DNA from: an uncultured Gammaproteobacteria bacterium | GTDB lineage: Bacteria; Pseudomonadota; Gammaproteobacteria; Pseudomonadales; Azotimanducaceae | Reading direction: 5' to 3' | Length of the DNA stretch: 64,000 nt | Assembly (NCBI GenBank): GCA_963787045.1 | Contig: CAWBBR010000010.1 | Coordinates: 7,742-71,741 of the forward strand | Shown: positions 17,242-50,642 of the stretch, piece by piece | How positions within the stretch are numbered: position 1 is the first letter of the stretch | Layout: each line of letters starts with the position of its first letter | Translations under genes and position numbers: made by a program | The notes under the pieces: model-generated | The model's database searches: none | The model's input: the letters and a program-made list of their open reading frames with translations, nothing else | What the model was told of the DNA's origin: nothing

Positions 17242-17995
17242 TTAGATCTTCAAAATGCCCCGACGCGGAGTCGCGGTGCCGTACGTGTCCGCCATGATCG
17301 GCGCACCGGCAGCCCGTAGCGCGTCGCGATGCCGGTCGATCGGAGTACGACACGACAGATCTTCGAATGCGCGCAGCGCCATGAACGCCGGTAGGTCCAA
17401 CACGCGCGTCACGATACGCGGCCAGCTTCGGCCACCGTTGCGGATCGATCGCGTACTTCGCGAACATCGCGTTTCGGAAGAAGACCGCGATCGAAATGTC
17501 TGCGATCGACAGCGCACCGAAAAGGAATGTTTCCGCAGGCGCCATCGGCTCGAGATAGTCGAGAATGCTGGGGATCTCTTCGTCGATCGCACGATCGACG
17601 ATTGCCTGATCGGTCTGCTCGCCCCACACGAACCGGTTGATGACACGTTGATTGAACAGCCGCCAGATGAAGACTTCACCCATCCGCGTATCGGCGAACT
17701 CCTCCAACCAGCGCGCTCGGGCGCGGTCCGCAACATCCGCGGGATATAGCGCCGGCTCTGGATAGCGATCGTCGAGGTATTGGCATATCACAGACGAATC
17801 GGCCAACGTCACGCGATCGTCGATCAGCACCGGAATGCGTCTGACAGGACTGAGGCGCGAAAACCGATCGTCGCCCATGAACGGAATGATCGGGTCGATC
17901 TGATAAGGAATTTGCTTCAGATTCAAAACCACGAGCGCCTTGCGGACATACGGCGATATGAACGAGCCGATGATTTGAACGGGCTTCGCTGCCAT
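17242..17995 (-). pseudogene. glutathione S-transferase, apparent 1-nt insertion near 17413
   Basis: From ATG 17995, MAAKPVQIIGSFISPYVRK...QRWPKLAAY reads in the frame of ORF 17147..18067. The normal GST C-terminus VTRVLDLPAFMALRAFEDL...RRGILKI* is in the frame of ORF 17242..17736. Junction: gcg tat (c) gtg acg. Confidence 0.8.
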
Positions 17996-18117
17996 CACTT
18001 TTCCCCTTCGAGCGCGCGTGGCCGCGAAGCCTATCACGCACCGCATCGATCGAGAGCGCACTGGCAAACTCTGCGTCGTTGCCGCAGGCTACCGCGGTCT
18101 CGGTAGCGGATCGATGG

Positions 18118-18531
18118 ATGAAACTCGCAGTCAGATTGATCGGCGCATTGGTGGCGGTCGTGGTCGTTCTGTTCGTCGTTCAGATTCTCGCGTCGGAGAG
18201 CGGCGAGGTCGTCGTCATCACCACTACCGACGCCACCGGGGCGCAACACGAAACGCATGTGTGGATCGTCGACAACGACGGCCACGCGTGGCTGCGATCC
18301 GGCTCTCCGAAATCGGCGTGGTATGCGCGTTTGAAGGAAACGCCAACGCTCGAGCTCGAGCGCGCCGGCACGCGGTCCGAATACACCGTGACCGCGGTGC
18401 CGGCCAAGCGCGCGGAACTGAATGCGCTGATGCGTGAGAAGTACGGCTGGGCGGACGCCTACATCGGCTTCTTCATCTCCCGCGCCGAAGCAGTGCCGAT
18501 CCGGCTCGATCCGCGTCCGTCCGAGGCTTAG
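18118..18531 (+). CDS. membrane-anchored hypothetical protein (possibly split-barrel/DDN-like)
   Basis: ATG at 18118 (MKLAVRLIGALVAVVVVLFVV), then a soluble domain. The fold assignment is only a weak impression. Confidence 0.5.
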   Translation: MKLAVRLIGALVAVVVVLFVVQILASESGEVVVITTTDATGAQHETHVWIVDNDGHAWLRSGSPKSAWYARLKETPTLELERAGTRSEYTVTAVPAKRAELNALMREKYGWADAYIGFFISRAEAVPIRLDPRPSEA

Positions 18532-19157
18532 TCGCCGTTGCCGATCCGTTCGAGGATCCATGCGTCGACCTGCTGCGCGGTGCGCTCGGGCGCGACGCTG
18601 GACGTGTCGAGAATGTCGATCTGCGGCGATCCTGTGTAGCTCTTGAACCACGCGTTGAATCGCAACTGTGCGGTTACGAACGCTGCCTGCCCTGAACCAC
18701 GCCATTCCGGACGCGCGTGCAACCGCTCGCGAAGATCTTCGTCGGTGCACGTCAGCGCGAGGTAATGCACCGCAGAGAAGTACCTGCGCTCTATGCACGG
18801 TTCGATGTTGCCCGGCACGCCGAAGCCGGCACCGAAAAGCACCACCGGACGCCGCGACTGCGCGATGTTCTTGGCCATCCGCAACCAGGTCTCGAAGAAA
18901 TGCGCGTGGTTCGACGGATCGACGAATTCGCGTCGCCACAGGATGTCGACATCTAACAACACCGCTCGGGTGACGACGCCGGTCAACAGGCCGCACACGC
19001 GCGTCTTGCCGGCACCGCTCGCGCCCGACACGATCAACAGCGGCGAGCACACGAAACGATGCGCGTGTCCGCAGTCGGGGCAGATTGCAGCGGGGCCGGA
19101 AAGCTCGATGCGCTTGTCGGCCCGATACGATCCGCAGTGCTCGCATACGTTGATCAC
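18528..19157 (-). CDS. zinc-ribbon-fused P-loop NTPase/kinase
   Basis: CEHCG...CPDCG ribbon at the N-terminus, then Walker A VSGASGAGKT. 209 aa. Confidence 0.65.
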   Translation of the reverse strand: MINVCEHCGSYRADKRIELSGPAAICPDCGHAHRFVCSPLLIVSGASGAGKTRVCGLLTGVVTRAVLLDVDILWRREFVDPSNHAHFFETWLRMAKNIAQSRRPVVLFGAGFGVPGNIEPCIERRYFSAVHYLALTCTDEDLRERLHARPEWRGSGQAAFVTAQLRFNAWFKSYTGSPQIDILDTSSVAPERTAQQVDAWILERIGNGD

Positions 19158-19744
19158 GGGTTCACGCCGCCCACGAACGCAACGAGTTCATCGACGATCG
19201 CGTGCGGGTCCTTCCGATCGGTGTCGATACGGTGCGCGAACGCATCGCTTGCCGAATGATCGCGACATGCGGCGGACGCGCGCGGGTACACCCACTCACC
19301 TTCACTGCTCGTTGGCGACACGCCGCGCGTCGCCAAGCGTGCGTGGACGGTAGTCTCAGGCGCCACCAGGCAGACATGGACGACGCGACATCCGCTCGCC
19401 GTCAGCGCGCTGCGAAGAACATCGAGCAGTCCGAGATCGAGCGACATCGGCACGATCAGCGGACGAGCCACGACCGCGCAAACGCGTATTGCGTGCACGG
19501 TCAGCGCGCGCCAAAGGCGCGACTCCCGATAGTCGTCGAGCATCGCGGTCGATCCCGGGAACCAGCGCGGCAATCGGCGCAGCACGTAGCCGATCCGCTC
19601 CGGGTCGTACAAACGGCTGCCTTTCACACGGTTTCGGAAGATGCGGGCCACCGACGACTTGCCGACGCCGAACGCTCCGTTGATCAGAACGACGCAGCGA
19701 CCGCTCGCTGCGCCGCCGTACGATTGACGCGACGCGCTAGACAT
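19154..19744 (-). CDS. P-loop NTPase/kinase (small-molecule kinase-like)
   Basis: Walker A INGAFGVGKSS. 4-nt overlap with the downstream P-loop gene. Confidence 0.65.
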   Translation of the reverse strand: MSSASRQSYGGAASGRCVVLINGAFGVGKSSVARIFRNRVKGSRLYDPERIGYVLRRLPRWFPGSTAMLDDYRESRLWRALTVHAIRVCAVVARPLIVPMSLDLGLLDVLRSALTASGCRVVHVCLVAPETTVHARLATRGVSPTSSEGEWVYPRASAACRDHSASDAFAHRIDTDRKDPHAIVDELVAFVGGVNP

Positions 19745-19930
19745 CTATCACCACGACCTGCCCGTTCCGCTTCCGAAATGCGGTTGCGAGCCGAATTTGC
19801 GACCGAACGCGACGTCGGTGGCGTTGAAGTCCAAATGGCCGCACACCAGTGTTCATGCGGCCTGCCGCCCGATTCGACCGCCATTGTTGCGATCTACTCG
19901 AGAAATTTTGCTGCGATGCAAAAAAAGTGA

Positions 19931-41721: not shown

Positions 41722-42899
41722 TGGATTTCGAATTTTCGACGAAAGAGCAGGCGTTTCGCGACGAAGTGCGCGCGTTCATCAAGGACAACCTGCCGCCTGC
41801 GAAGCAGCGCAACAGCGACTTCCTCACCAACTGGCTGACCAAGGTGCGCGAGAAGCGCTGGGTGGGATTCGCGTGGCCGAAGGACGTCGGCGGTGCCGAC
41901 GGCTCCATCGCGGAGCAGGCGATCCTCAAAGAGGAGATGGCACTGGCGAAAGCGCCGCCGCTCGGTACGTCGTTCATGGGTCTCGCGTGGGTCGGCCCGG
42001 GAATCATTCAATACGGCACTCCGGAACAGAAGAAGCGCTTCATCCCCGACATCCTCGATTCGAAAGTCAGCTGGTGCACCGGCTATTCCGAACCGAACTA
42101 CGGCAGCGACCTCGCATCGATCCAGACGAAAGGCGTGCGTCAGGGCGACCATTACCTGGTCAATGGACAGAAGATCTGGACCACCGGCGCGCCGTGGGCC
42201 GACTGGATCATCCTGCTGGTGCGCACCGACTTCGCGCCGAAAGTGAAACACGACGGCATCACCTGCCTGCTCGTGGACATGAAGACGCCCGGCGTGGAAG
42301 TGCGCCCGATCGAGAACATGGCCGGCGACCGCCACTTCGCCGAGGTGTTCTTCACCGACGTCAAGGTGCCGGTTGCGAATCGTCTCGGCGAGGAAGGCAA
42401 AGGCTGGTCGGTAACCGTTTCGGCGCTGGCGAACGAACGCTCCAGCATCGGTGAAGTGACGCAGATGTTCGAAAAGCTCGACACGCTGAAAGCGCTGGTG
42501 AAGAACACACGGCGCAACGGCAAGCCGGCGGCGCAGCACCCGGCGGTACGCCGGAAAATCGCCGAGTTCGACGTGAAGATCGCCGCGATGAAATACAACG
42601 GCTTGCGCTATCTGACGAAACAGCTGAAAGGCGAACCGCTATCGAGCGAGACGTCAGTCAACAAGATGCACCGCGCCAGCCTCGAAGTGGAGATGGACGA
42701 CTTTGCGGTGTCGCTGACGGGTCAGGCCGGTCTCGAACTGAAAGACGGTGCCGAAGCAGTCGATCGCGGCAAATGGGCGAAAGCTTCGCTCAACTGGCCG
42801 AACGTCGTCATCGGCGGCGGCACGCCGAACATTCAGCGCAACATCATCGCGGAGCGAATTCTGGGATTGCCGAAAGACGCCAGCGACAATTCGTTTTAA
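41721..42899 (+). CDS. acyl-CoA dehydrogenase family protein
   Basis: ATG at 41721 shares 1 nt with the previous stop (TAATG). MDFEFSTKEQAFRDEV.., GQKIWTTGA, C-terminal IGGGTPNIQRNIIAERILGLP. Confidence 0.9.
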   Translation: MDFEFSTKEQAFRDEVRAFIKDNLPPAKQRNSDFLTNWLTKVREKRWVGFAWPKDVGGADGSIAEQAILKEEMALAKAPPLGTSFMGLAWVGPGIIQYGTPEQKKRFIPDILDSKVSWCTGYSEPNYGSDLASIQTKGVRQGDHYLVNGQKIWTTGAPWADWIILLVRTDFAPKVKHDGITCLLVDMKTPGVEVRPIENMAGDRHFAEVFFTDVKVPVANRLGEEGKGWSVTVSALANERSSIGEVTQMFEKLDTLKALVKNTRRNGKPAAQHPAVRRKIAEFDVKIAAMKYNGLRYLTKQLKGEPLSSETSVNKMHRASLEVEMDDFAVSLTGQAGLELKDGAEAVDRGKWAKASLNWPNVVIGGGTPNIQRNIIAERILGLPKDASDNSF

Positions 42900-43648
42900 C
42901 GAGCTGGTTCCACCAATTCGGATGAGGGGAGCATCTTCTCGGCGTTCGCGCATCGCGACTGAACGTCGTGCGCTTCCAGATACGGCAACAGTTCCGCGTA
43001 GTTTTCGATCAGTTCACCGTATCCTCGATCGACTGTCTTTCTGAGACTGATACTGCGGGGCTCGAATGGTCCCAGGCCGAGGAACCTCGACAGCTTTTCT
43101 GCCGTCGATGCCCAGTTTCCCTCGTGCTCGAGATCGTCTTCGTAGCACACGTCTAGATGGCGAATGTGCTTGATCAGATCCATTTCCCTCGACCGCCACC
43201 GATCTCGAATCGCGATCTCGCGCTGCAGTTGTGCCACGCTGACAACGATACGATTCGCGGGCGACGCATCGTCACCGCGGCGATGCCAACGTTGCGTGCG
43301 TTCGGCGATGATGTTCGACAGCGACTGACGCGCGATATTCCTCCGGTAAACGTGTATGAACTTCCACCCGCCGAATGCCATGACCTTCATCATCAGGCGC
43401 GCGCGCGGCAGGTGATAGAACAGCAGTTTGAATCCGTAGGCCTTCCTCGCCACGCGACGCCGAAGATAGTTGAGATACGGTATAGGAAACATCTTGACGA
43501 ACTTGGACAACGCACCGTGGCCGATTCGACCGGCCTCTTCGTTGAACAGTTCTCCGTCACAGTGGACGTCCGGGTGTGTATTGATCAACTCCACGAGAAG
43601 CGTGCTGCCCGACCGTGATTGTCCATAGATTACGAACTTTCCAGACAT
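42896..43648 (-). CDS. sulfotransferase family protein
   Basis: ATG at 43648 (1-nt overlap, TGATG, with the upstream stop). MSGKFVIYGQSRSGSTLLVELI matches a PAPS 5'-phosphosulfate-binding-loop-like motif. 250 aa. Confidence 0.7.
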   Translation of the reverse strand: MSGKFVIYGQSRSGSTLLVELINTHPDVHCDGELFNEEAGRIGHGALSKFVKMFPIPYLNYLRRRVARKAYGFKLLFYHLPRARLMMKVMAFGGWKFIHVYRRNIARQSLSNIIAERTQRWHRRGDDASPANRIVVSVAQLQREIAIRDRWRSREMDLIKHIRHLDVCYEDDLEHEGNWASTAEKLSRFLGLGPFEPRSISLRKTVDRGYGELIENYAELLPYLEAHDVQSRCANAEKMLPSSELVEPAR

Positions 43649-44868
43649 CACTTCGTCCAGGGAATAGCAGTCCGACGTGCCAGCTTCCAAGCTGGAATCA
43701 AAAGGTAGTCGTGAAGGGGCACGGCCACGCGATAAAGCGGGTGCAACCACTTGGGCAGCGGCAGGCGCTCCATATGCAGTACAGACGGTGTAGTAGTGGT
43801 GCGCCAGAAATAGCGCCAACGATCGATGAGGCGCTCGCGCTGGCGAAACAGCATCGGCGAGAAGATGCTCGGAGAATCCGGCAAAAAGCGTCGCTGTCCA
43901 GGTGCGATTCTCCACGAGTTCACAACCGCGAGTGAGAGACGTGCAACGTCGCGGTCCGATCGAATCGTCGCACACAGATCGCTCGGTACATCGGCGCCCA
44001 ACAGTTCGGCCGCGAGAAATAGGCCAAGGTGAAGGATGCGGACTGTGCCCGTCTTCCGGGCCATTTCAGTCACCGCGGACCAATCGACGTCACGATGTGT
44101 CCTCATGCACTCCGCAACGTCGCACACCATCTGCAACCGCTCCCAACGGCCTTTTGCACCGACGAGGCAATGCACCAGCAATGCATCTTCGGGGCCGAAC
44201 ACTCTCAGTGCGACACCGTTGAAGTTCCAGCGACCTGAACGTTGCCAGAATCCTTCGTAGTCCACCTCGAATGGATAGCGCTTCCCAGTCAACGACCAGT
44301 GAGGCTCCAGCGAAAATGCGCCGCGATGCAGCACGAACTCCTTGAACTCGGCGACGAAGTGATCGAACTGATCTGTCGTGAATTCACTCGAGTTGGCGTA
44401 GCCATCATCCTCCAACAGATCCAGGATCCGGGCCACATCACGGCGCCGTACCAGGAAGTCGAGGTCATTGAAGTTTCGCAGCGCAACCGAGCCGTAGAAT
44501 TGTCCCGCAGCCACGGCACCCTTGTAGTTGATTATCTCGATCGATTGACTTTCGAACAGCTGAAACAGCCGCACGAGTTCGATCGCGAAAAGCTCGCTCT
44601 TCCAGGTGGTGATGCGCGAGCGAACGCGCATCGTCTCCATCACTCTCGTCGGAACGTCTGCGACTTTGATGGAGTTCAAGCTACGCAACACGAGCGGCGC
44701 GACATAGTGTCGCTCCAGCCGCGCGAGAAAATCCGGCCAGTCGAAGCCTCCGCGAATCAGCGACTCGATTCGCGCGGACTCTTCCGATCCAAACGTCGAT
44801 CGGGCGGCCAGGCAAATGCAGGCGAGTTCAGGCCCACACTCGGTAATCAGCAGACCCAAGGAACTCAC
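43648..44868 (-). CDS. uncharacterised nucleotidyltransferase (NTP_transf_5-like)
   Basis: 406 aa; GTG start overlaps the upstream stop (GTGA). INYKGAVAAGQFYG...RNFNDLDFLV...LEDDGY resembles the PF14907-type core as I remember it. Confidence 0.65.
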   Translation of the reverse strand: MSSLGLLITECGPELACICLAARSTFGSEESARIESLIRGGFDWPDFLARLERHYVAPLVLRSLNSIKVADVPTRVMETMRVRSRITTWKSELFAIELVRLFQLFESQSIEIINYKGAVAAGQFYGSVALRNFNDLDFLVRRRDVARILDLLEDDGYANSSEFTTDQFDHFVAEFKEFVLHRGAFSLEPHWSLTGKRYPFEVDYEGFWQRSGRWNFNGVALRVFGPEDALLVHCLVGAKGRWERLQMVCDVAECMRTHRDVDWSAVTEMARKTGTVRILHLGLFLAAELLGADVPSDLCATIRSDRDVARLSLAVVNSWRIAPGQRRFLPDSPSIFSPMLFRQRERLIDRWRYFWRTTTTPSVLHMERLPLPKWLHPLYRVAVPLHDYLLIPAWKLARRTAIPWTK

Positions 44869-46097
44869 CTCTCCGCGTTACCGTTTGCGATCGCGCGATT
44901 CCGCCATCGTGTAAGCGAACGGCTCAGCATCGACGCGCCGAAATTCAGCGCGCGCGTCAGATAGTAGTGCGGCAATTTCCACAGCGGTGCGTTGTACCTC
45001 CAGCTCATGTATCGGGACGAAGGCAGCACCATGAATCTCACGAAACCGAGCGCAGTACTCCAGTTCGCCTGCGCCCATCCGTATGCCTTGCGCGGTGAAG
45101 CCGAGGTGTGAAGGATCGCTCCAAAGAGAGCCTCTCTTTGAACCGCATTCAAGGGACTACGATCGGCAAGTTCACTCAGCGTAGTTTCAGGTATTCGCGC
45201 ACCCAGGTTCTGCTTCATCCAGCGAAGGAACACCAGGAGTGGCAGCCCCAACCCCGAGCGCGTCGCCGTTTGCACGACAACGTTCCATGCGATAGCGGGG
45301 TTACGCTCGACAAGGTAGAACGCATCGCAGGCCCAACGCAAATTGGATCGAGACCGCGAGTAGATTGCATGGCCGAGCACGTGCACCAGACAGTCTTCAG
45401 GCGACAATATCTGTGCGCCACGCGCACCAAGCCCTACGGTTCGGAGCCTCCCGACGAACTCCTCGAGGGGCAGATCGAAATGCGGCAGATACAAAGGCTT
45501 CGAGTGCAACGCCAACGGGAGGCCGGTGACGTGACGAAGGGATCTATGCCAGGCATCGCCGGAGCCTGCTTGTTCAGCTGCGAATCGTCCTGACGACAGC
45601 ACCGTGCCCGCATGCCGCATCTGTGATGCCTCGATCCACAGATCGATCGCGTGGTTGTGTCGGCGTGAAGGCTGCGGATATGCACTTGCGGATACCGCGC
45701 CGCCCTTCAGCAATACACACGATACTCCGCTCCCATCGAGAGCATCGAGCGCCTCGCAAAGTATCTCCAGATAGATCCGGTTGCGCAGAGCTTCTCGTAC
45801 CGAAGCGACTCGAGCGTACGTATGGAAACTCCGGCCCGCATCGATGCCCAGTTCGGTCAATCGTGATTCGACGAGCGGGAGCATTCCCTTGAGCCCGGTG
45901 CCATTGAGTTCGAAGAATCGCTTCGGATCGCCAACGGCAGCGACGAAGTCGCGCCACGCCTCCGATGCGGTGTCTGGCACACACATGCATGCTGCCAACA
46001 ACAAACCGTGGGTGTGGGGGGGCAGCGCGTTCCGCAGCATGATGTCGTAGCGGGACGTTTCGGAAGACTTTGGGGACGAGCGTCGCCTCTTATTCAT
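44865..46097 (-). CDS. uncharacterised nucleotidyltransferase (NTP_transf_5-like), divergent paralogue
   Basis: 410 aa; ATG overlaps the GT2 stop (ATGA). VLLKGGAVSASAYP...HAIDLWI... has the same architecture as the neighbour but a degenerate core motif. Confidence 0.6.
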   Translation of the reverse strand: MNKRRRSSPKSSETSRYDIMLRNALPPHTHGLLLAACMCVPDTASEAWRDFVAAVGDPKRFFELNGTGLKGMLPLVESRLTELGIDAGRSFHTYARVASVREALRNRIYLEILCEALDALDGSGVSCVLLKGGAVSASAYPQPSRRHNHAIDLWIEASQMRHAGTVLSSGRFAAEQAGSGDAWHRSLRHVTGLPLALHSKPLYLPHFDLPLEEFVGRLRTVGLGARGAQILSPEDCLVHVLGHAIYSRSRSNLRWACDAFYLVERNPAIAWNVVVQTATRSGLGLPLLVFLRWMKQNLGARIPETTLSELADRSPLNAVQREALFGAILHTSASPRKAYGWAQANWSTALGFVRFMVLPSSRYMSWRYNAPLWKLPHYYLTRALNFGASMLSRSLTRWRNRAIANGNAER

Positions 46098-46774
46098 GTT
46101 CTAGATTGCCGGCGACGTGCAATACGCGCTCGTGCAATCGCGAGCAGTTCGAGTTCACCTTCGGCATTGCGATAGTGGCTCATGTTCGCGTCATGAATGC
46201 GCCGATCCACGAGGACATCTGGCAGTGATTCGACCACGCGACCCGCGTCCGTGGCTCGGAGCACGAATTCATGAAGATCGCGGTGCCTCAACGATGGGTC
46301 AAGCAAGCCGATCTCGGCAAACAGCGACCGGCGCGCGACAAACGACGAACCAAGGTTGGGCTCTGGTGCAGCGTTAAATGGAAGACTGGCGTCTGCATCG
46401 GTAGAAACGAAATTGCACATATGCCCGGAGCAGATCGACAACGTCGGGTTCGCATCGAACCGTGCAACCTGTACCGCGATTTTGTCCGGTCGCCATATGT
46501 CGTCCGCGTCGAGAAAAGCGACCAAGTCGCCTGACGAACGATTCACTCCTGCATTCCGTGCGCTCGATGGCCCCGCGTTGGGTTGATATACATATACGAC
46601 ACGCGAGCCGAAAGTCTCCGCGACACCTTTGGTCGCATCAGTCGATCCGTCGTCGACGATGATGATTTCGAATACTGGGTAACCCTGCGAACACGCGGAC
46701 GAGATCGCTTCTGCGAGATACCGTTCGCCGTTGAAGACGGGGATGACACAGCTCACGCGAGTGGTTGTTCGCAT
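46094..46774 (-). CDS. family 2 glycosyltransferase
   Basis: ATG at 46774 gives MRTTTRVSCVIPVFNGERYLAEAISS...IIVDDGSTD...FLDADD. 226 aa. Confidence 0.85.
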   Translation of the reverse strand: MRTTTRVSCVIPVFNGERYLAEAISSACSQGYPVFEIIIVDDGSTDATKGVAETFGSRVVYVYQPNAGPSSARNAGVNRSSGDLVAFLDADDIWRPDKIAVQVARFDANPTLSICSGHMCNFVSTDADASLPFNAAPEPNLGSSFVARRSLFAEIGLLDPSLRHRDLHEFVLRATDAGRVVESLPDVLVDRRIHDANMSHYRNAEGELELLAIARARIARRRQSRT

Positions 46775-46796
46775 GCGTGGTACTGTGCCGCACCAG

Positions 46797-46825
46797 TTAC
46801 AGGAAAGACGAGAAGTCTTTGTAAT
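46797..46825 (+). promoter_or_regulatory. weak candidate promoter in the 63-bp divergent intergenic region
   Basis: TTACAG, 17 nt, then TGTAAT. This would leave almost no leader before ATG 46838, so it is doubtful. Confidence 0.2.
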
Positions 46826-46837
46826 GTGTTGGTAATC

Positions 46838-48029
46838 ATGGGGGACCGCCGGTTCCGTTTTGTGACAGACTCCCGTTGGACTATCAACGGGTCCTTCGCG
46901 ATGCCTCCCGTGGCGCATGATCCAAATGGCCAGATTCTCGCGCCCGCGCAGGTCCCCTTTATGGGATTGGTCAGTTGCTTCGAGCGCGCGGCGGCAGCGC
47001 AACGCATTGATCAGTTTTGCCTGGCGATCGCAGGGCACGCAGTACGCGTGCGCGTCGTTGGTCAGGAGTGGGCGCACATCGTTGCGGCCGCGATGGGTCA
47101 TCTGCGAACCGACGATCGTTACTTTCGGCCCGATCTCACCATCGACGTCTGGGATGTCCACGCGACCGGCGTGCGCACCCTCGTCACAACGCGCATCTCG
47201 TGCACCGGCGCCACCAGTGCTGATGAAGAGTTCCGAAGACGGTTTCTTCATTGGTGAAGAACGACATCACGGTATGACGTGGCTGGATCGGCGCGGCAAC
47301 CGAATCGTCGGCTTTGCCGATAGCGTCTCGCGCCTCAACCTGGATGAAAGGGCGAGGCCGTTCCACAAGATGCTCTCTGCATGGCTCGAAGACCGCGGCG
47401 CACAATTCATTCATGCGGGCCTCGTCCGGCATCGCGACAAAGGCATCCTCTTCGTAGGAAACGGGGGCGCAGGAAAGTCCACGTCCTCGATCGCCTGCCT
47501 GCGCGCCGGAATGGGATATCTTGGCGATGACTTCATCGGGCTTGGCGCCGAGGATGGCCACTTCATCGGTCATGGCCTCTATGCGTCGTGTTTGCTCGAC
47601 ATGCACCACATCACTCGCTTCCCGGATCTTCGACGTCTCGGACACGCGCCGAACTACCCACATGAAGAAAAGTACGTGCTTTACCTAACCGAAGCGTTTT
47701 CCGACCGGCTTCTCACCCGCAGCGGCATCGATGCAATCGCGCTGCCGCGCGTTGTCAATTCCGAACTCACCACGTTTCGACCGGCCACCCAAGCTGAAAC
47801 ACTGAGGGCTATTGCGCCGACATCGGTCATGTATCTGCCACGGCCCACTCGTGCTGCTTTCGAGCGCCTGGTCAAGCTCGTGCAGGTCACGCCGAGTTAC
47901 TGGCTGGAACTGGGCCGTCGCGTCGATCTCATTCCGGATGTGGTGCGCGACCTCGCGGATCGCATCGACGACCATCGGAGCGAAACACACTCCCCAGGTA
48001 TCCCTTCCACCGCATTGCGAGAGGCGTAG
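46838..48029 (+). pseudogene. HPr-kinase-like P-loop protein (HprK-related kinase), apparent 1-nt frameshift at ~47170-47235, or alternatively two overlapping ORFs
   Basis: The C-terminal part (ORF 46917..48029 frame) has GILFVGNGGAGKSTSSIACLRAGMGYLGDDF, like the HprK P-loop/DD region. An N-domain-like 130 aa (MGDRRFRFVTDSRW..LAIAGHAVRVRV..PDLTIDVWDV) reads in the frame of ORF 46583..47257. Confidence 0.65.
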
Positions 48030-48031
48030 CC

Positions 48032-48466
48032 ATGCTGTCGTTATCGAGCTATCTGGCACCCAATGAACAACAGGTAGCCGCAAAGGTCATGGATGGGGAA
48101 GCCATCCTCATCAACCTTGCGACGGGCACGTACTACAGTATGCCCGGGACCGGTGGCTTCATCTGGTCCTTGATCGAACGAAAGATATCCCTCAACGATA
48201 TCGTTAGTGCACTGGCGACCAAGTACGATGCCGACCGCCAACAACTCGAAGCCGACGCAGCACGGCTGTGCCAGGAACTCAGTGACGAAGGATTGTTGAC
48301 CATCGCCTCGATAGGGAACAGCGACGAACCGTTCGTTTCGGATTCAGACGGTCGTGAGCCCTATCAGTCTCCGACGCTCGAGAAATTCACCGACATGGCG
48401 GAAATGTTTGCACTGGACCCACCGCTCCCTGGGCTTGGTGCCAACGGTCCGGCGAAACGCACTTGA
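48032..48466 (+). CDS. PqqD-family (RRE-like) protein with 54-aa C-terminal extension
   Basis: Residues ~8-90 (VAAKVMDGEAILINLATGTYYSMPGTGGFIWSLIE...IVSALATKYD..QLEADAARLCQELSDEGLL) match the PqqD/RRE pattern. The ATG lies 2 nt after the kinase stop. Confidence 0.8.
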   Translation: MLSLSSYLAPNEQQVAAKVMDGEAILINLATGTYYSMPGTGGFIWSLIERKISLNDIVSALATKYDADRQQLEADAARLCQELSDEGLLTIASIGNSDEPFVSDSDGREPYQSPTLEKFTDMAEMFALDPPLPGLGANGPAKRT

Positions 48467-48484
48467 GCCGCGCCCGCGCGAAGC

Positions 48485-49186
48485 ATGATGCGACCTAAGA
48501 TCAGCTGCATCATTCCCGTCTACAACGCGGCGGAGTATCTCGCCGAAGCATTGGACAGCGTACTTGCGCAAACCGTTGTTCCTGACGAGATCATTCTTAT
48601 CGACGACGGTTCCACCGACGACCCGCAGAAGGTCGTTAACCCGTATCAAAGGCACGTCCACCTGGTGCATCAGGAAAACCGCGGGCCTGCCGCGGCGCGC
48701 AACCATGGTCTACGGTTGGCGACGGGAGATCTGATCACGTTCCTGGATGCAGACGACGTATGGGCGCCAGAGAAGACGGCGCGCCAATGCGAAGCCTTGG
48801 CGAACGGGCCGGAACTCTCGATCTGCATCACTCACGCACAGAACTTCTGGCAACCCGAATTGGCGCATGAGCGGGAACATCTGGATCAGCGATACGCGGA
48901 ACCGCACCCCGGTTACGTATGTCAATGCCTGATGGCGCGGCGTGGCGTGTTCGATCGGATTGGCGTGTTCGACGAGTCGCTACGGGTCAGCGAAGATACG
49001 GATTGGTTTGCGCGGGCAGAGCGCGCAGGCATCGACAAATTGATCCTGCCGGACGTGCTGGTACACCGTCGCTTGCACAGTACCAACACTAGCTACGCAC
49101 TCTACGATTCGGCGGCCGCACGCGAGAGCATCCTCGAAGTGGCACTTCGCAATCTGCGCCACAAGCGAGGAAACGAGTCGACCTGA
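48485..49186 (+). CDS. family 2 glycosyltransferase (paralogue of 46094..46774)
   Basis: MMRPKISCIIPVYNAAEYLAEALDS..ILIDDGSTD..FLDADD..ED. 233 aa. Confidence 0.9.
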   Translation: MMRPKISCIIPVYNAAEYLAEALDSVLAQTVVPDEIILIDDGSTDDPQKVVNPYQRHVHLVHQENRGPAAARNHGLRLATGDLITFLDADDVWAPEKTARQCEALANGPELSICITHAQNFWQPELAHEREHLDQRYAEPHPGYVCQCLMARRGVFDRIGVFDESLRVSEDTDWFARAERAGIDKLILPDVLVHRRLHSTNTSYALYDSAAARESILEVALRNLRHKRGNEST

Positions 49187-49268
49187 TCGTCGGGTGTCTG
49201 CCGATGATCGCGTGCTTCGGTGCTGACAACTCATCCAGATAGAGTCCTCGAGCCTTCTCTCGCGTATT

Positions 49269-49387
49269 CTATCGATACGTGAATCGCCACAATTTCGATC
49301 CCGATGCCGGTACCCGCAGGAATAGACCACGCTCTTCGTAGCGCTTGCCCGGGACCTGTACGCCCTCACCTGCGCGTCTGTCAGCAT
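49269..49387 (-). mobile_element. decayed P4-type (DUF4102-bearing) tyrosine integrase N-terminal remnant
   Basis: MLTDAQVRA (from ATG 49387) and, one frame over, PGKRYEERGLFLRVPASGSKLWRFTYR* match the LTDxxVR...GLYLxVxPSGSKxWRxxYR signature. No catalytic domain follows; GT2 ends at 49186. Confidence 0.65.
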
Positions 49388-49430
49388 GATTGGCTCCGAA
49401 GGCCAAAAGACGGCAGCGACTAACGCGCCA

Positions 49431-50642
49431 ATGAAGGCGCGCTGGATACTCGTCGCTCTGATCACTCTGATCGCGTCCCCTACATGGGGCGCCGCGCCGT
49501 TGGTGATCGTGATGTCCTGGGACGGAATGCGATACGACTATCCGGATCGCGCCGCATTTCCCGGTCTCTCGCGCATGCAGCGGGAGGGCGTGCGCGCGGA
49601 ACGGCTGGTCGCCGGCTGGCCGTCGTCGACATTCCCGGGCCACGTGACGCTCGCAACGGGTACGTGGGCGGGTACGCACGGCATCGTCGACAACGAATTC
49701 CTCGATCGGAAGCGGGGCCGTTTTGCGTATTCGAGCGACGCGAGCTGGCTCGAAGCCGAACCGCTATGGATCACCGCAGAGCGCCAGGGCGTGCATGCAG
49801 CGACGTATTTCTGGGTCGGTTCCGAAACCGACTGGCACGGTCAACACCAGCAGTATCGAATCGCGCCGTTCAATGGCGAGACGCCTGAGAGCGTGAAAGT
49901 CGATCAGATGCTCGCGTGGATCGACTTGCCCGCGGATCAGCGGCCGGGTCTGATCATGGCGTACTGGCACGGCGCCGACACCGTGGGCCATCGCCGCGGG
50001 CCTGAAAGCGACGCGGTAGTCGATCAGATTTTCGAACAGGACGCGCAGCTCGTCCGGCTGCTCGACGGTATCGACGCGAGACATTTGTGGGACGACACGA
50101 CGCTGATCCTCGTCAGCGATCACGGCATGACCGAACTGCACGGTTTCTTCGACCTGGCGGGATATCTCACCGAGCACGGTTACCACGCGCGCGTGTTCGG
50201 CGGCCCGGGTGTCGCGCACGTGTTTCTCAACGACGCATCCCAACTCGATGGCGCCTTTGCGCTGTTGTCAGCGCGTAAGCCGCTCGAGGTTTATCGCGGT
50301 ACCGAGTTGCCGGAGCGTTTTCACCTCAGCGCCAAGGATCGCGTCGGCGATCTGGTCGTGATCAGCGATCCATCATTACCGTTGGCGTATCCGGCGTGGT
50401 GGATACGCGCTTTGTATGCCGCGCTCGGACCGATCGCAGGCGTCTATCCCGGCAGTCATGGCTTCGATCCGAATCTTCCGGAGATGGGCGCCACACTGTT
50501 GATGATGGGGCGCGGGATACCGAAAGGCGTGCGCATCGGCGCGATACCGATGATCGACATTGCACCGACCGCCGCCCGGTTACTGCACATCGAGCCGCCA
50601 TTGCAGTCGGAAGGAAAACCGCTGCCGGAAATCGGTAACTGA
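49431..50642 (+). CDS. nucleotide pyrophosphatase/phosphodiesterase (alkaline-phosphatase superfamily)
   Basis: ATG at 49431 gives the signal peptide MKARWILVALITLIASPTWG. SWDGMRYDY, TFPGHVTLATG, SDHGM and GSHGFDP motifs. Confidence 0.85.
   Translation: MKARWILVALITLIASPTWGAAPLVIVMSWDGMRYDYPDRAAFPGLSRMQREGVRAERLVAGWPSSTFPGHVTLATGTWAGTHGIVDNEFLDRKRGRFAYSSDASWLEAEPLWITAERQGVHAATYFWVGSETDWHGQHQQYRIAPFNGETPESVKVDQMLAWIDLPADQRPGLIMAYWHGADTVGHRRGPESDAVVDQIFEQDAQLVRLLDGIDARHLWDDTTLILVSDHGMTELHGFFDLAGYLTEHGYHARVFGGPGVAHVFLNDASQLDGAFALLSARKPLEVYRGTELPERFHLSAKDRVGDLVVISDPSLPLAYPAWWIRALYAALGPIAGVYPGSHGFDPNLPEMGATLLMMGRGIPKGVRIGAIPMIDIAPTAARLLHIEPPLQSEGKPLPEIGN

Follow-up and report, generated by a model that had tools for sequence, protein, structure and literature searches.

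Results

A divergent seven-gene cassette

We analyzed a 64,000-nucleotide stretch of DNA, hereafter the window, from an uncultured bacterium of the gammaproteobacterial family Azotimanducaceae (GenBank assembly GCA_963787045.1, contig CAWBBR010000010.1, positions 7,742 to 71,741 of the forward strand), and within it a cassette that combines a P-loop kinase and a PqqD-like protein with two NTP_transf_5 proteins, two family 2 glycosyltransferases (GT2) and a sulfotransferase. At its center stands the PqqD-like protein, a recognition element for peptides that are made on the ribosome and modified after translation (RiPP recognition element, RRE) whose own C-terminal tail bears a motif like that of a lasso peptide leader. 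Listing and translation of the open reading frames (ORFs) place the seven genes in two tightly packed divergent operons, four genes on the minus strand and three on the plus strand. The minus-strand genes (42896-43651, 43648-44868, 44865-46097 and 46094-46774) are joined by TGATG/GTGA, GTGA and ATGA overlaps, and on the plus strand the kinase gene, ending at 48029, is separated by 2 nt from the PqqD gene (48032-48466), which is separated in turn by 18 nt from a GT2 gene (48485-49186). These junctions agree with those described in an initial annotation made from the sequence alone, which had two divergent operons. Its parts list was likewise right, with Pfam backing the sulfotransferase, both NTP_transf_5 proteins, both GT2s and the PqqD protein. 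The spacer that it gave between the operons has to be lengthened from 63 to 126 bp, as the kinase start is conserved at 46901 and not at 46838: in an alignment of the spacer with five relatives, the ATG at the former position is kept and that at the latter is not.

The PqqD protein and its leader-like tail

The PqqD/RRE gene (48032..48466, plus strand) encodes 144 residues, about 50 more than a plain RRE, arranged as an RRE (approximately residues 1-92), a variable linker (93-108) and a leader-like tail from residue 111. The protein matches PF05402 (E 5e-17). An AlphaFold2 (AF2) model built with 45 homologues has a mean predicted local distance difference test score (pLDDT) of 83, and its top six Foldseek matches in the PDB are the lasso B1 proteins TbiB1 (5v1v, 5v1u) and TfuB1 (6jx3), with PqqD next. 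The B1 matches, to structures solved with leader peptides, have template modelling (TM) scores of 0.82-0.91 on the target at 20-34% identity. The protein thus has a predicted fold nearest to TbiB1 and TfuB1 and a YxxPxL motif in cis, yet its score against the nearest NCBIfam model, lasso_PqqD_Bac, is 58.9 bits, under the cut-off of 80.

The tail motif (48362..48433, plus strand) reads Y111-QS-P114-T-L116-EKFT-D121-MAEMFAL-D129-PPLPG134, that is, YxxPxL, the recognition motif of lasso leaders, followed by a near-invariant DMxxΦΦALDPPxPG segment. According to PMC6784204 and PMC10368454 (citing Chekan 2019 and Sumida 2019), Y-x-x-P-x-L corresponds to leader residues Tyr-17 together with Pro-14 and Leu-12, which are recognized by discrete lasso B1 RREs; the start of the tail, Yx2Px[LIMV], has this spacing. 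An alignment of 31 loci shows a conserved RRE, a variable linker rich in Ala, Pro, Gly and Ser, and a tail, Y-x-x-P-x-[LIMV]-x-x-[FYW]-x-D-M-x-x-Φ-Φ-A-L-D-P-P-x-P-G, that is near-invariant across phyla. Residues 121-133 hold 7 of the 21 invariant columns of the whole protein, and in 233 of 238 full-length family members, drawn from two subfamilies, the motif keeps a fixed span of 23 residues. The window-type family comprises 240 clusters, the best 120 of which are 125-176 residues long with at least 85% query coverage, and therefore include the tail. The second subfamily (...LNIYRDMGDLLALDPPTPGL.DIPW...) comprises 987 clusters.

A search of 1.84 billion representative proteins with a profile restricted to the tail gave 309 matches at E<=1e-3. 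Among the best 150 of these, the motif mostly lies near the C-terminus of proteins of 130-210 residues, and the five that we read are all of PqqD type. We considered whether some matches might be free precursors, and rejected this, as the 26 short ones inspected look like contig-end fragments or miscalled starts; some short matches begin inside the PqqD domain. Several of the short proteins (P0313, P0256, P0303 and P0345) have starts of MCIRDR or MCFG type, which we read as adaptor-derived contig-end artefacts in gene calls from public metagenomes. Against PDB chains the tail profile gave chance matches only, the leader peptides there being too short.

In the AF2 model, pLDDT is 70-74 along the linker, rises to 92 over residues 111-120 (YQSPTLEKFT), which form short strand elements, and falls to 61 and then below 50. 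Such a profile, which is indirect evidence, would be expected of a YxxPxL stretch that lies against the RRE and is followed by a segment still waiting for its partner. The residue at x of [FY]xDM was considered as a phosphorylation site, an idea that we abandoned: T predominates there in the window type and S, D or E are found in some proteins, but V, R and Q occur as well, and in the second subfamily it is R in 111 of 118 proteins. The initial annotation had reported that the cassette lacks a precursor. For a separate gene this is true; what was overlooked is the leader-like YxxPxL peptide and the invariant segment fused to the PqqD protein itself.

Distribution of the cassette

A profile scan of one genome per GTDB species recovered 30 loci beyond the window, all in metagenome-assembled genomes (MAGs). 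They belong to Gammaproteobacteria (Steroidobacteraceae, Pseudomonadales, Arenicellales and Methylococcaceae), Alphaproteobacteria (Sphingomonadales and Geminicoccaceae) and Gemmatimonadota, with core proteins 40-97% identical. In tblastn maps and annotated neighborhoods, virtually all loci with sufficient flanking sequence have the kinase, the PqqD protein, at least one GT2 and one or two NTP_transf_5 proteins. The closest relatives (L001, L005, L006, L008 and L012) keep the same seven-gene order, and alphaproteobacterial loci place a family 4 glycosyltransferase (GT4) between the kinase and PqqD genes. Recurrent accessory genes encode an NAD epimerase (11 loci), an SGL lactonase (8), an HD_4/DUF6817 protein (7), a PF01663 phosphodiesterase (7) and a fused ATP-binding cassette (ABC) exporter (6).

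PqqD-tail genes of the second subfamily sit in clusters of about 20 kb that hold one to three kinases and three or four GT2s of the same families, as well as GT4s. These sister clusters also carry one or two sulfotransferases, epimerases, GlcNAc 2-epimerase, PIG-L, WbqC, HD_4/DUF6817, AsnB-type amidotransferases, radical SAM/SPASM proteins, a polytopic membrane protein and an ABC exporter. They are devoid of NTP_transf_5, so the deepest common core is the PqqD-tail protein and GT2, with or without the kinase, and the window cassette is a streamlined variant. One forest-soil contig (L037) has three paralogous kinases (1-1156, 17633-18781 and 18785-19891) around a single PqqD-tail gene, together with four GT2s, two GT4s, two sulfotransferases and one SPASM protein.

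Lasso biosynthesis genes

The Pfam scan of the window covered ORFs of at least 200 residues between 29.4 and 59.6 kb, several of which have no Pfam family, with 59.7-64 kb left out. Among these ORFs there is no Asn_synthase (PF00733), no transglutaminase-like protease and no ABC exporter, as the initial annotation had stated. PF00733 is likewise absent from L001, L003 and L004 and from neighbors conserved in at least five loci; AsnB-type proteins with glutamine amidotransferase (GATase) domains occur only in distant sister clusters. No B2 leader peptidase (PF13471) is found among the Pfam-annotated genes of the window and its relatives. Small intergenic ORFs with Yx2Px[LIMV] were sought in the window and, at the 30 loci, up to 10 kb from the kinase gene, and none was detected, so that no stand-alone small ORF bearing a leader lies in that range. 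The neighborhood comparison that the initial annotation had suggested as a check found no conserved small ORF family beyond shadow ORFs of neighboring genes. A 58-residue ORF in L004 (17433-17609, minus strand) has a weak match to Nif11, a RiPP leader family; it belongs to a stretch of Rieske dioxygenase genes, at a distance of about 6 kb from the cassette, and is probably unrelated to it.

No lasso cyclase, protease or precursor family recurs across the neighborhoods of the 30 loci. The initial annotation had allowed that orthologous loci might carry these genes just outside an equivalent block; the core instead recurs without recognizable copies of them. Because it does so across phyla, the reading as a broken lasso cluster falls away, and judged by gene content the cassette is an autonomous unit.

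The kinase gene

The kinase (46901..48029, plus strand) has the P-loop fold of phosphoenolpyruvate carboxykinase (PEPCK) and HprK and about 375 residues once repaired; as assembled, it is disrupted by one extra base at approximately 47174. The initial annotation had taken the gene to be intact, but the ORF that it gave (46838 to 48029) is 1192 nt long, not a multiple of three. Frame A tracks the homologues to ...DVWDVHATGV, and frame B does so from APSSQRASRAPAPPVLMK (...APPVLMK) onward. The kinase of a sister strain (P0389, on a 253,877-bp contig) reads through without interruption (...ATGVAPSSQRASRAPAPPVLMK...) and equals window frame A to 47173 joined to frame B from 47175, which identifies the extra base. 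The gene call of the source assembly covers only a fragment of 251 residues (P0002), and a Logan contig with an identical PqqD protein has an intact gene of 396 residues upstream. In L012 (CAWGGQ010000002.1, 6049-12279, an MFD-series MAG) six of the seven cassette genes each appear in two tblastn pieces. Frameshifts in MFD-type assemblies, possibly including that of the window, may be sequencing artefacts, and for the window kinase an assembly or sequencing error is as likely as a true pseudogene created by recent inactivation.

The family comprises proteins of about 355-378 residues in at least 183 database clusters. A Walker A motif, GNGGAGKST, and an LGDDF motif are invariant across 29 homologues, so that the P-loop and catalytic DD of lasso-type kinases are present in the homologues, with the window gene itself frameshifted. 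The lasso kinase PsmK depends on the equivalent DD pair (PMC6993621). A profile of the family aligns with the P-loop-to-DD stretch of the HprK C-domain in the PDB (E 2e-4), and the homologues give weak matches to Pfam ScmC (PF27840) in the neighborhood tables. The repaired window protein has no Pfam family at E<=0.001, and the window kinase scores 17 bits against Hpr_kinase_C (gathering score 33) and 28 bits against TIGR04352 (cut-off 200). Matches to TIGR00679 (HPr kinase/phosphorylase) reach 15-44 bits against a cut-off of 240 and cover the P-loop stretch only. The earlier description of an HprK-like kinase is borne out by the motifs and by the profile match to the HprK stretch, but not by these models, whose scores are far below threshold. 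HprK and PEPCK have a common P-loop fold. The AF2 model of the homologue P0003 (pLDDT 91) finds its best Foldseek matches in PEP carboxykinases (E 1e-11, TM score 0.53-0.56 on the query), which places the whole-protein fold closer to PEPCK than to bona fide HPr kinase.

NTP_transf_5 proteins, glycosyltransferases and sulfotransferase

The two NTP_transf_5 proteins differ in their motifs. The first, NT5a (43648..44868, minus strand, 406 residues, PF14907 E 5.9e-52), has the GS...DLD signature with the DxD of lasso-type NTP_transf_5 enzymes, within a YG[SA]..LRNFNDLDFLV motif kept in 14 loci. The lasso enzyme PsmN requires these DxD aspartates (PMC6993621). NT5a has no sequence relative in the PDB. 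In the second, NT5b (44865..46097, minus strand, 410 residues, PF14907 E 2.1e-28), RHNHAIDLW replaces the DxD; this is the NTP_transf_5 type of 28 related loci, where RHxHx[IL][DE]L is conserved, and the sequence suggests either a different chemistry or a non-catalytic role.

Both glycosyltransferases match PF00535. GT2a (46094..46774, minus strand, 226 residues, E 9.4e-35) is of soluble size, and its best NCBIfam matches are generic GT2 families (MftF, TuaG and EpsD), all far below cut-off. Enzymes of the family of GT2b (48485..49186, plus strand, 233 residues, E 5.6e-36), 41-51% identical, are encoded next to PqqD-tail genes of the distant subfamily as well. Both GT2s have MftF among their best NCBIfam matches, at 64-83 bits against a cut-off of 280. 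The sulfotransferase (42896..43651, minus strand, 251 residues) starts at a GTG at 43651 or an ATG at 43648, has a YGQSRSGST motif resembling a 3'-phosphoadenosine-5'-phosphosulfate (PAPS) loop, and matches Sulfotransfer_3 (37.9 bits) and Stf0 Sulphotransf (29.1 bits) in Pfam. It is confined to the closest relatives, L001, L005, L006, L008 and L012.

Control region and edges of the block

The divergent control region (46775..46900, 126 bp) contains two conserved non-coding blocks, 46816-46837 (TCTTTGTAATGTGTTGGTAATC) and 46858-46873 (TTTTGTGACAGACTCC), in an alignment with L001, L005, L006, L008 and L012. They are kept in relatives whose cassette DNA is overall only 67-72% identical, and they are probably an operator or promoter serving both operons. 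A scan for sigma-70 promoters and terminators yielded nothing informative, with no match to the sigma-70 consensus in this spacer.

As the initial annotation had observed, the block is lower in GC than its flanks, at 58.5% against 64-65% on either side. It had also placed an integrase remnant at the end of the block. A fragment of 25 residues resembling the N-terminus of an Arm-DNA-bind_3 integrase does lie at the right edge (49269..49343, minus strand), but at 21.1 bits it falls below the gathering score of 27, and searches for a tRNA, bounding direct repeats and Rfam elements detected none. At the left edge the stops of the convergent genes for an acyl-CoA dehydrogenase (plus strand, ending at 42899) and the sulfotransferase (minus strand, ending at 42896) overlap, leaving no intergenic DNA. 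The DNA that flanks the block in the window is shared with no relative's cassette locus. Given the GC dip and the unshared flanks, and with weak evidence from the integrase, the block was probably acquired horizontally.

To the left of the block lie genes for acyl-CoA dehydrogenases, an AMP-binding enzyme, short-chain dehydrogenases/reductases and a sensor kinase, and to its right genes for a PF01663 phosphodiesterase, NamZ, an AAA_16 ATPase, a GntR-aminotransferase, a decarboxylase and a beta-lactamase. The PF01663 gene, a type I phosphodiesterase/nucleotide pyrophosphatase with a signal-peptide-like N-terminus (49386-50642, plus strand, E 1e-71), lies just beyond the cassette. Seven other loci, such as L023 (7093-8610), have a different PF01663-like gene of about 505 codons close to the cassette. 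This association may be coincidence, or it may point to a partner that processes phosphodiesters.

Comparison with known systems

The likeness to the tailoring set of phosphorylated and phosphoglycosylated lasso peptides, to which the initial annotation had drawn attention, is real (PMC8498205, PMC6993621, PMC10368454). The HprK homologue of paeninodin-type clusters places a phosphate on a Ser of the precursor in its linear form (PMC8498205, PMC10368454, PMC6993621), and in Bradymonas the kinase BsfK requires the B1 RRE BsfB1 to phosphorylate its peptide (PMC10368454). In the pseudomycoidin system the NTP_transf_5 protein PsmN is needed to put one or two hexoses on the phospho-Ser (PMC6993621), and sulfotransferase genes accompany some phosphorylated lasso clusters (PMC8498205, PMC10368454, PMC6993621). 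The window cassette shares with these sets (PadeK; PsmK/PsmN/PsmB1; BsfK/BsfB1/BsfN) an HprK-type kinase with DD, a B1-like RRE that is discrete from the enzymes, an NTP_transf_5 protein with DxD and a sulfotransferase. It differs in having no B2, C, separate precursor or exporter, in its two additional GT2s and DxD-less NT5b, in the fusion of the leader-like motif to the RRE, and in the lack of the conserved C-terminal Ser that accepts phosphate in lasso peptides.

Other systems that pair a kinase with a PqqD-like protein are less similar. The initial annotation had suggested that the locus might belong to a TIGRFAM class of HprK-related kinases A and B with PqqD-related partners. The HPr-rel-A system (TIGR04352 kinase A with the TIGR04353 PqqD chaperone) and the kinase B of the GAK system (TIGR04355) do resemble the cassette in pairing an uncharacterized HprK-like kinase with a PqqD-like protein, and are the best NCBIfam matches of the kinase, though weak and limited to the P-loop stretch. 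The membership itself is not borne out: scores against TIGR04352 (14-34 bits, cut-off 200), TIGR04355 (12-26 bits, cut-off 200) and TIGR04353 (14.7-16.2 bits, cut-off 35) all fall far below cut-off.

SynChlorMet has a similar pair in the HprK-like ScmC and PqqD-like ScmD, to which the weak PF27840 matches point, alongside the radical SAM/SPASM proteins ScmE/F, and radical SAM/SPASM genes are present in the sister clusters. The window cassette, however, has no radical SAM gene, and its matches to ScmC (TIGR04249, 12-22 bits, cut-off 125) and ScmD (TIGR04248, 16-25 bits, cut-off 100) are below cut-off. To our knowledge, GT2, NTP_transf_5 and sulfotransferase genes are not part of the SynChlorMet cassette. 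Mycofactocin (MftB/MftF) and pyrroloquinoline quinone (PqqD) biosynthesis offer a discrete RRE of the PqqD family, a peptide segment under very strong conservation and, in MftF, a similar GT2. The window cassette departs from them in lacking a radical SAM protein, in the fusion of the peptide to the RRE and in its MftF scores far below cut-off, and its kinase, NTP_transf_5 proteins and sulfotransferase have no counterpart in those pathways. Scores against lasso_PqqD_Bac reach 58-64 bits, with a cut-off of 80, and judged by these profile scores no curated family covers the cassette. The RRE-Finder papers mention fusions of RREs to glycosyltransferases, not the arrangement seen here, and full-text literature searches (PF14907, HprK-related, SynChlorMet, RRE with HPr kinase) returned no description of this cassette architecture.

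Discussion

Our findings describe a compact set of transferases organized around an RRE that carries its own leader-like peptide. A peptide- or protein-directed decoration system, as first proposed for this locus, is still the best reading. More specifically, we tentatively view the block as a compact member of a large uncharacterized class of RRE-centered phospho/glyco-modification cassettes, in which the RRE would dock its own leader-like tail and the PqqD protein would be both a chaperone and a scaffold or substrate; we would give this view somewhat less than an even chance. The RRE domain would bind the YxxPxL of its own tail, or of that of a neighboring copy, and docking would keep the invariant segment that follows, together with the variable C-terminus, within reach of the active sites of the partner enzymes. 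Phosphorylation by the kinase would come first; from this phosphate the NTP_transf_5 and GT2 enzymes would assemble a short (phospho)glycan, to be decorated by the sulfotransferase. The sub-type found in the window adds two NTP_transf_5 proteins and a sulfotransferase to a core of kinase, RRE protein with its tail on a flexible linker, and soluble GT2. We infer the docking in cis, the role of the tail as a substrate, the order of the reactions and the product by analogy with lasso systems, in which the B1 RRE binds YxxPxL and recruits the kinase and NTP_transf_5 adds hexose to the phosphate. The residues essential in PsmK and PsmN, the DD of the kinase and the DxD of NT5a, are both conserved in the cassette.

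Several observations weigh against this proposal. The sole evidence for docking in cis is the pLDDT pattern of a monomer model. The tail holds no invariant Ser or Thr, so a conserved phospho-acceptor of the lasso kind, the C-terminal Ser, is missing. Alphaproteobacterial tails end in ...DPPLPAAPR with no hydroxyl past the motif, and 15 of the 233 motif-bearing PqqD proteins have no Ser or Thr at all after it. The near-invariance of the tail is unlike the hypervariable cores of RiPPs and would fit a pure protein-protein docking element. NT5b, the universal NTP_transf_5 paralogue, has no DxD, and the kinase fold is also compatible with small-molecule kinases such as PEPCK. Finally, the clusters of the larger sister subfamily resemble polysaccharide loci, with sugar-nucleotide enzymes, many glycosyltransferases, AsnB-type amidotransferases and an ABC exporter, and without NTP_transf_5. 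The sister-cluster content thus pulls towards glycan chemistry, and the SPASM enzymes and the RRE pull towards a peptide substrate.

Some of these observations are better accommodated if the tail is a built-in pseudo-leader and docking peptide that occupies the RRE and assembles the kinase, glycosyltransferases and NTP_transf_5 proteins into a complex, with the substrate elsewhere, be it a peptide or protein in trans or a non-peptide acceptor. An invariant DMxxΦΦALDPPxPG is more what an interaction surface would show than what a core peptide would, the tail has no invariant Ser or Thr, and residues 121-144 have the low pLDDT, in a model of the monomer, that a segment folding only on its partner should have. 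RREs of RiPP pathways are also known to recruit and potentiate partner enzymes (PMC10368454; PMC12710340). However, no candidate trans substrate was found within 10 kb of the kinase in the 30 loci or in the window, and an RRE that is never separated from its leader is without precedent in the literature searched. We consider such an adaptor role possible, if on balance doubtful.

A bolder form of the substrate proposal is that the PqqD-tail protein is a self-recognizing carrier, an RRE permanently joined to its own leader and to an invariant segment that would serve as acceptor. The phospho-, glyco- or sulfo-conjugate assembled there would be a protein-primed glycan, or else a metabolite derived from the peptide and released later. 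It would then represent a new RiPP-like or protein-primed glycan class with more than 1,000 members in soil Proteobacteria, Gemmatimonadota and others, all uncultured so far. This is speculative, and we rate it as unlikely.

It is also conceivable that the cassette is an ordinary polysaccharide or glycoconjugate locus that makes a sulfated or phosphorylated exopolysaccharide or surface glycan, with the PqqD-like protein as an accessory chaperone and no peptide chemistry. Its relatives carry NAD epimerases, SGL lactonase, GlcNAc 2-epimerase, PIG-L, WbqC, AsnB-type amidotransferases, many GT2s and GT4s, a polytopic membrane protein and an ABC exporter, and the GT2s resemble those of exopolysaccharide and teichuronic acid synthesis at the family level. 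Against this, neither the scanned part of the window (29.4-59.6 kb) nor the annotated relatives contain a priming phosphoglycosyltransferase, Wzx/Wzy/Wza or Wzm/Wzt; the only export system in the relatives is an ABC exporter with fused transmembrane and nucleotide-binding domains, in some loci. The window cassette is conserved as a unit, yet has no sugar-nucleotide or export genes. Membership of a known exopolysaccharide operon, which the initial annotation had left open, is thus not seen, as the locus matches no recognized operon type. Such a locus would leave unexplained the leader-like motif on the RRE in 233 of 238 members, as well as the radical SAM/SPASM genes of peptide type in the larger clusters, and we regard this explanation as improbable.

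The reading of the block as a decayed lasso cluster of paeninodin or pseudomycoidin type, reduced to its tailoring half by loss of the cyclase, protease, precursor and exporter, draws on gene content like the K, B1, N and sulfotransferase set (PMC8498205), an RRE nearest to lasso B1, one frameshifted gene and a low-GC block with an integrase fragment at its edge, but is effectively refuted by a core that is conserved without recognizable B2, C or A in 30 loci across phyla and with no Asn_synthase or transglutaminase family recurring around it, by the intact kinase of the sister strain and by the strong constraint on the tail motif.

RREs are the main handle for class-independent genome mining of RiPPs and are assumed to bind a separately encoded precursor. 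Here, an RRE bears a lasso-type leader motif on its own tail, beside a kinase and glycosyl-, nucleotidyl- and sulfo-transferases, with no class-defining RiPP enzyme. The cassette is widespread in uncultured soil bacteria and belongs to a large class that is unnamed and uncharacterized, and the tail flags about 1,200 database proteins labeled merely 'PqqD family'. If the tail is the substrate, the cassette would represent a new organization of peptide modification, by which bacteria might make phosphoglycosylated or sulfated peptides or proteins; if it is an adaptor, it would show that lasso tailoring enzymes have been re-used for other chemistry. Either way, these cassettes would provide a test system for the still unexplained NTP_transf_5 'glycosylation' activity of pseudomycoidin.

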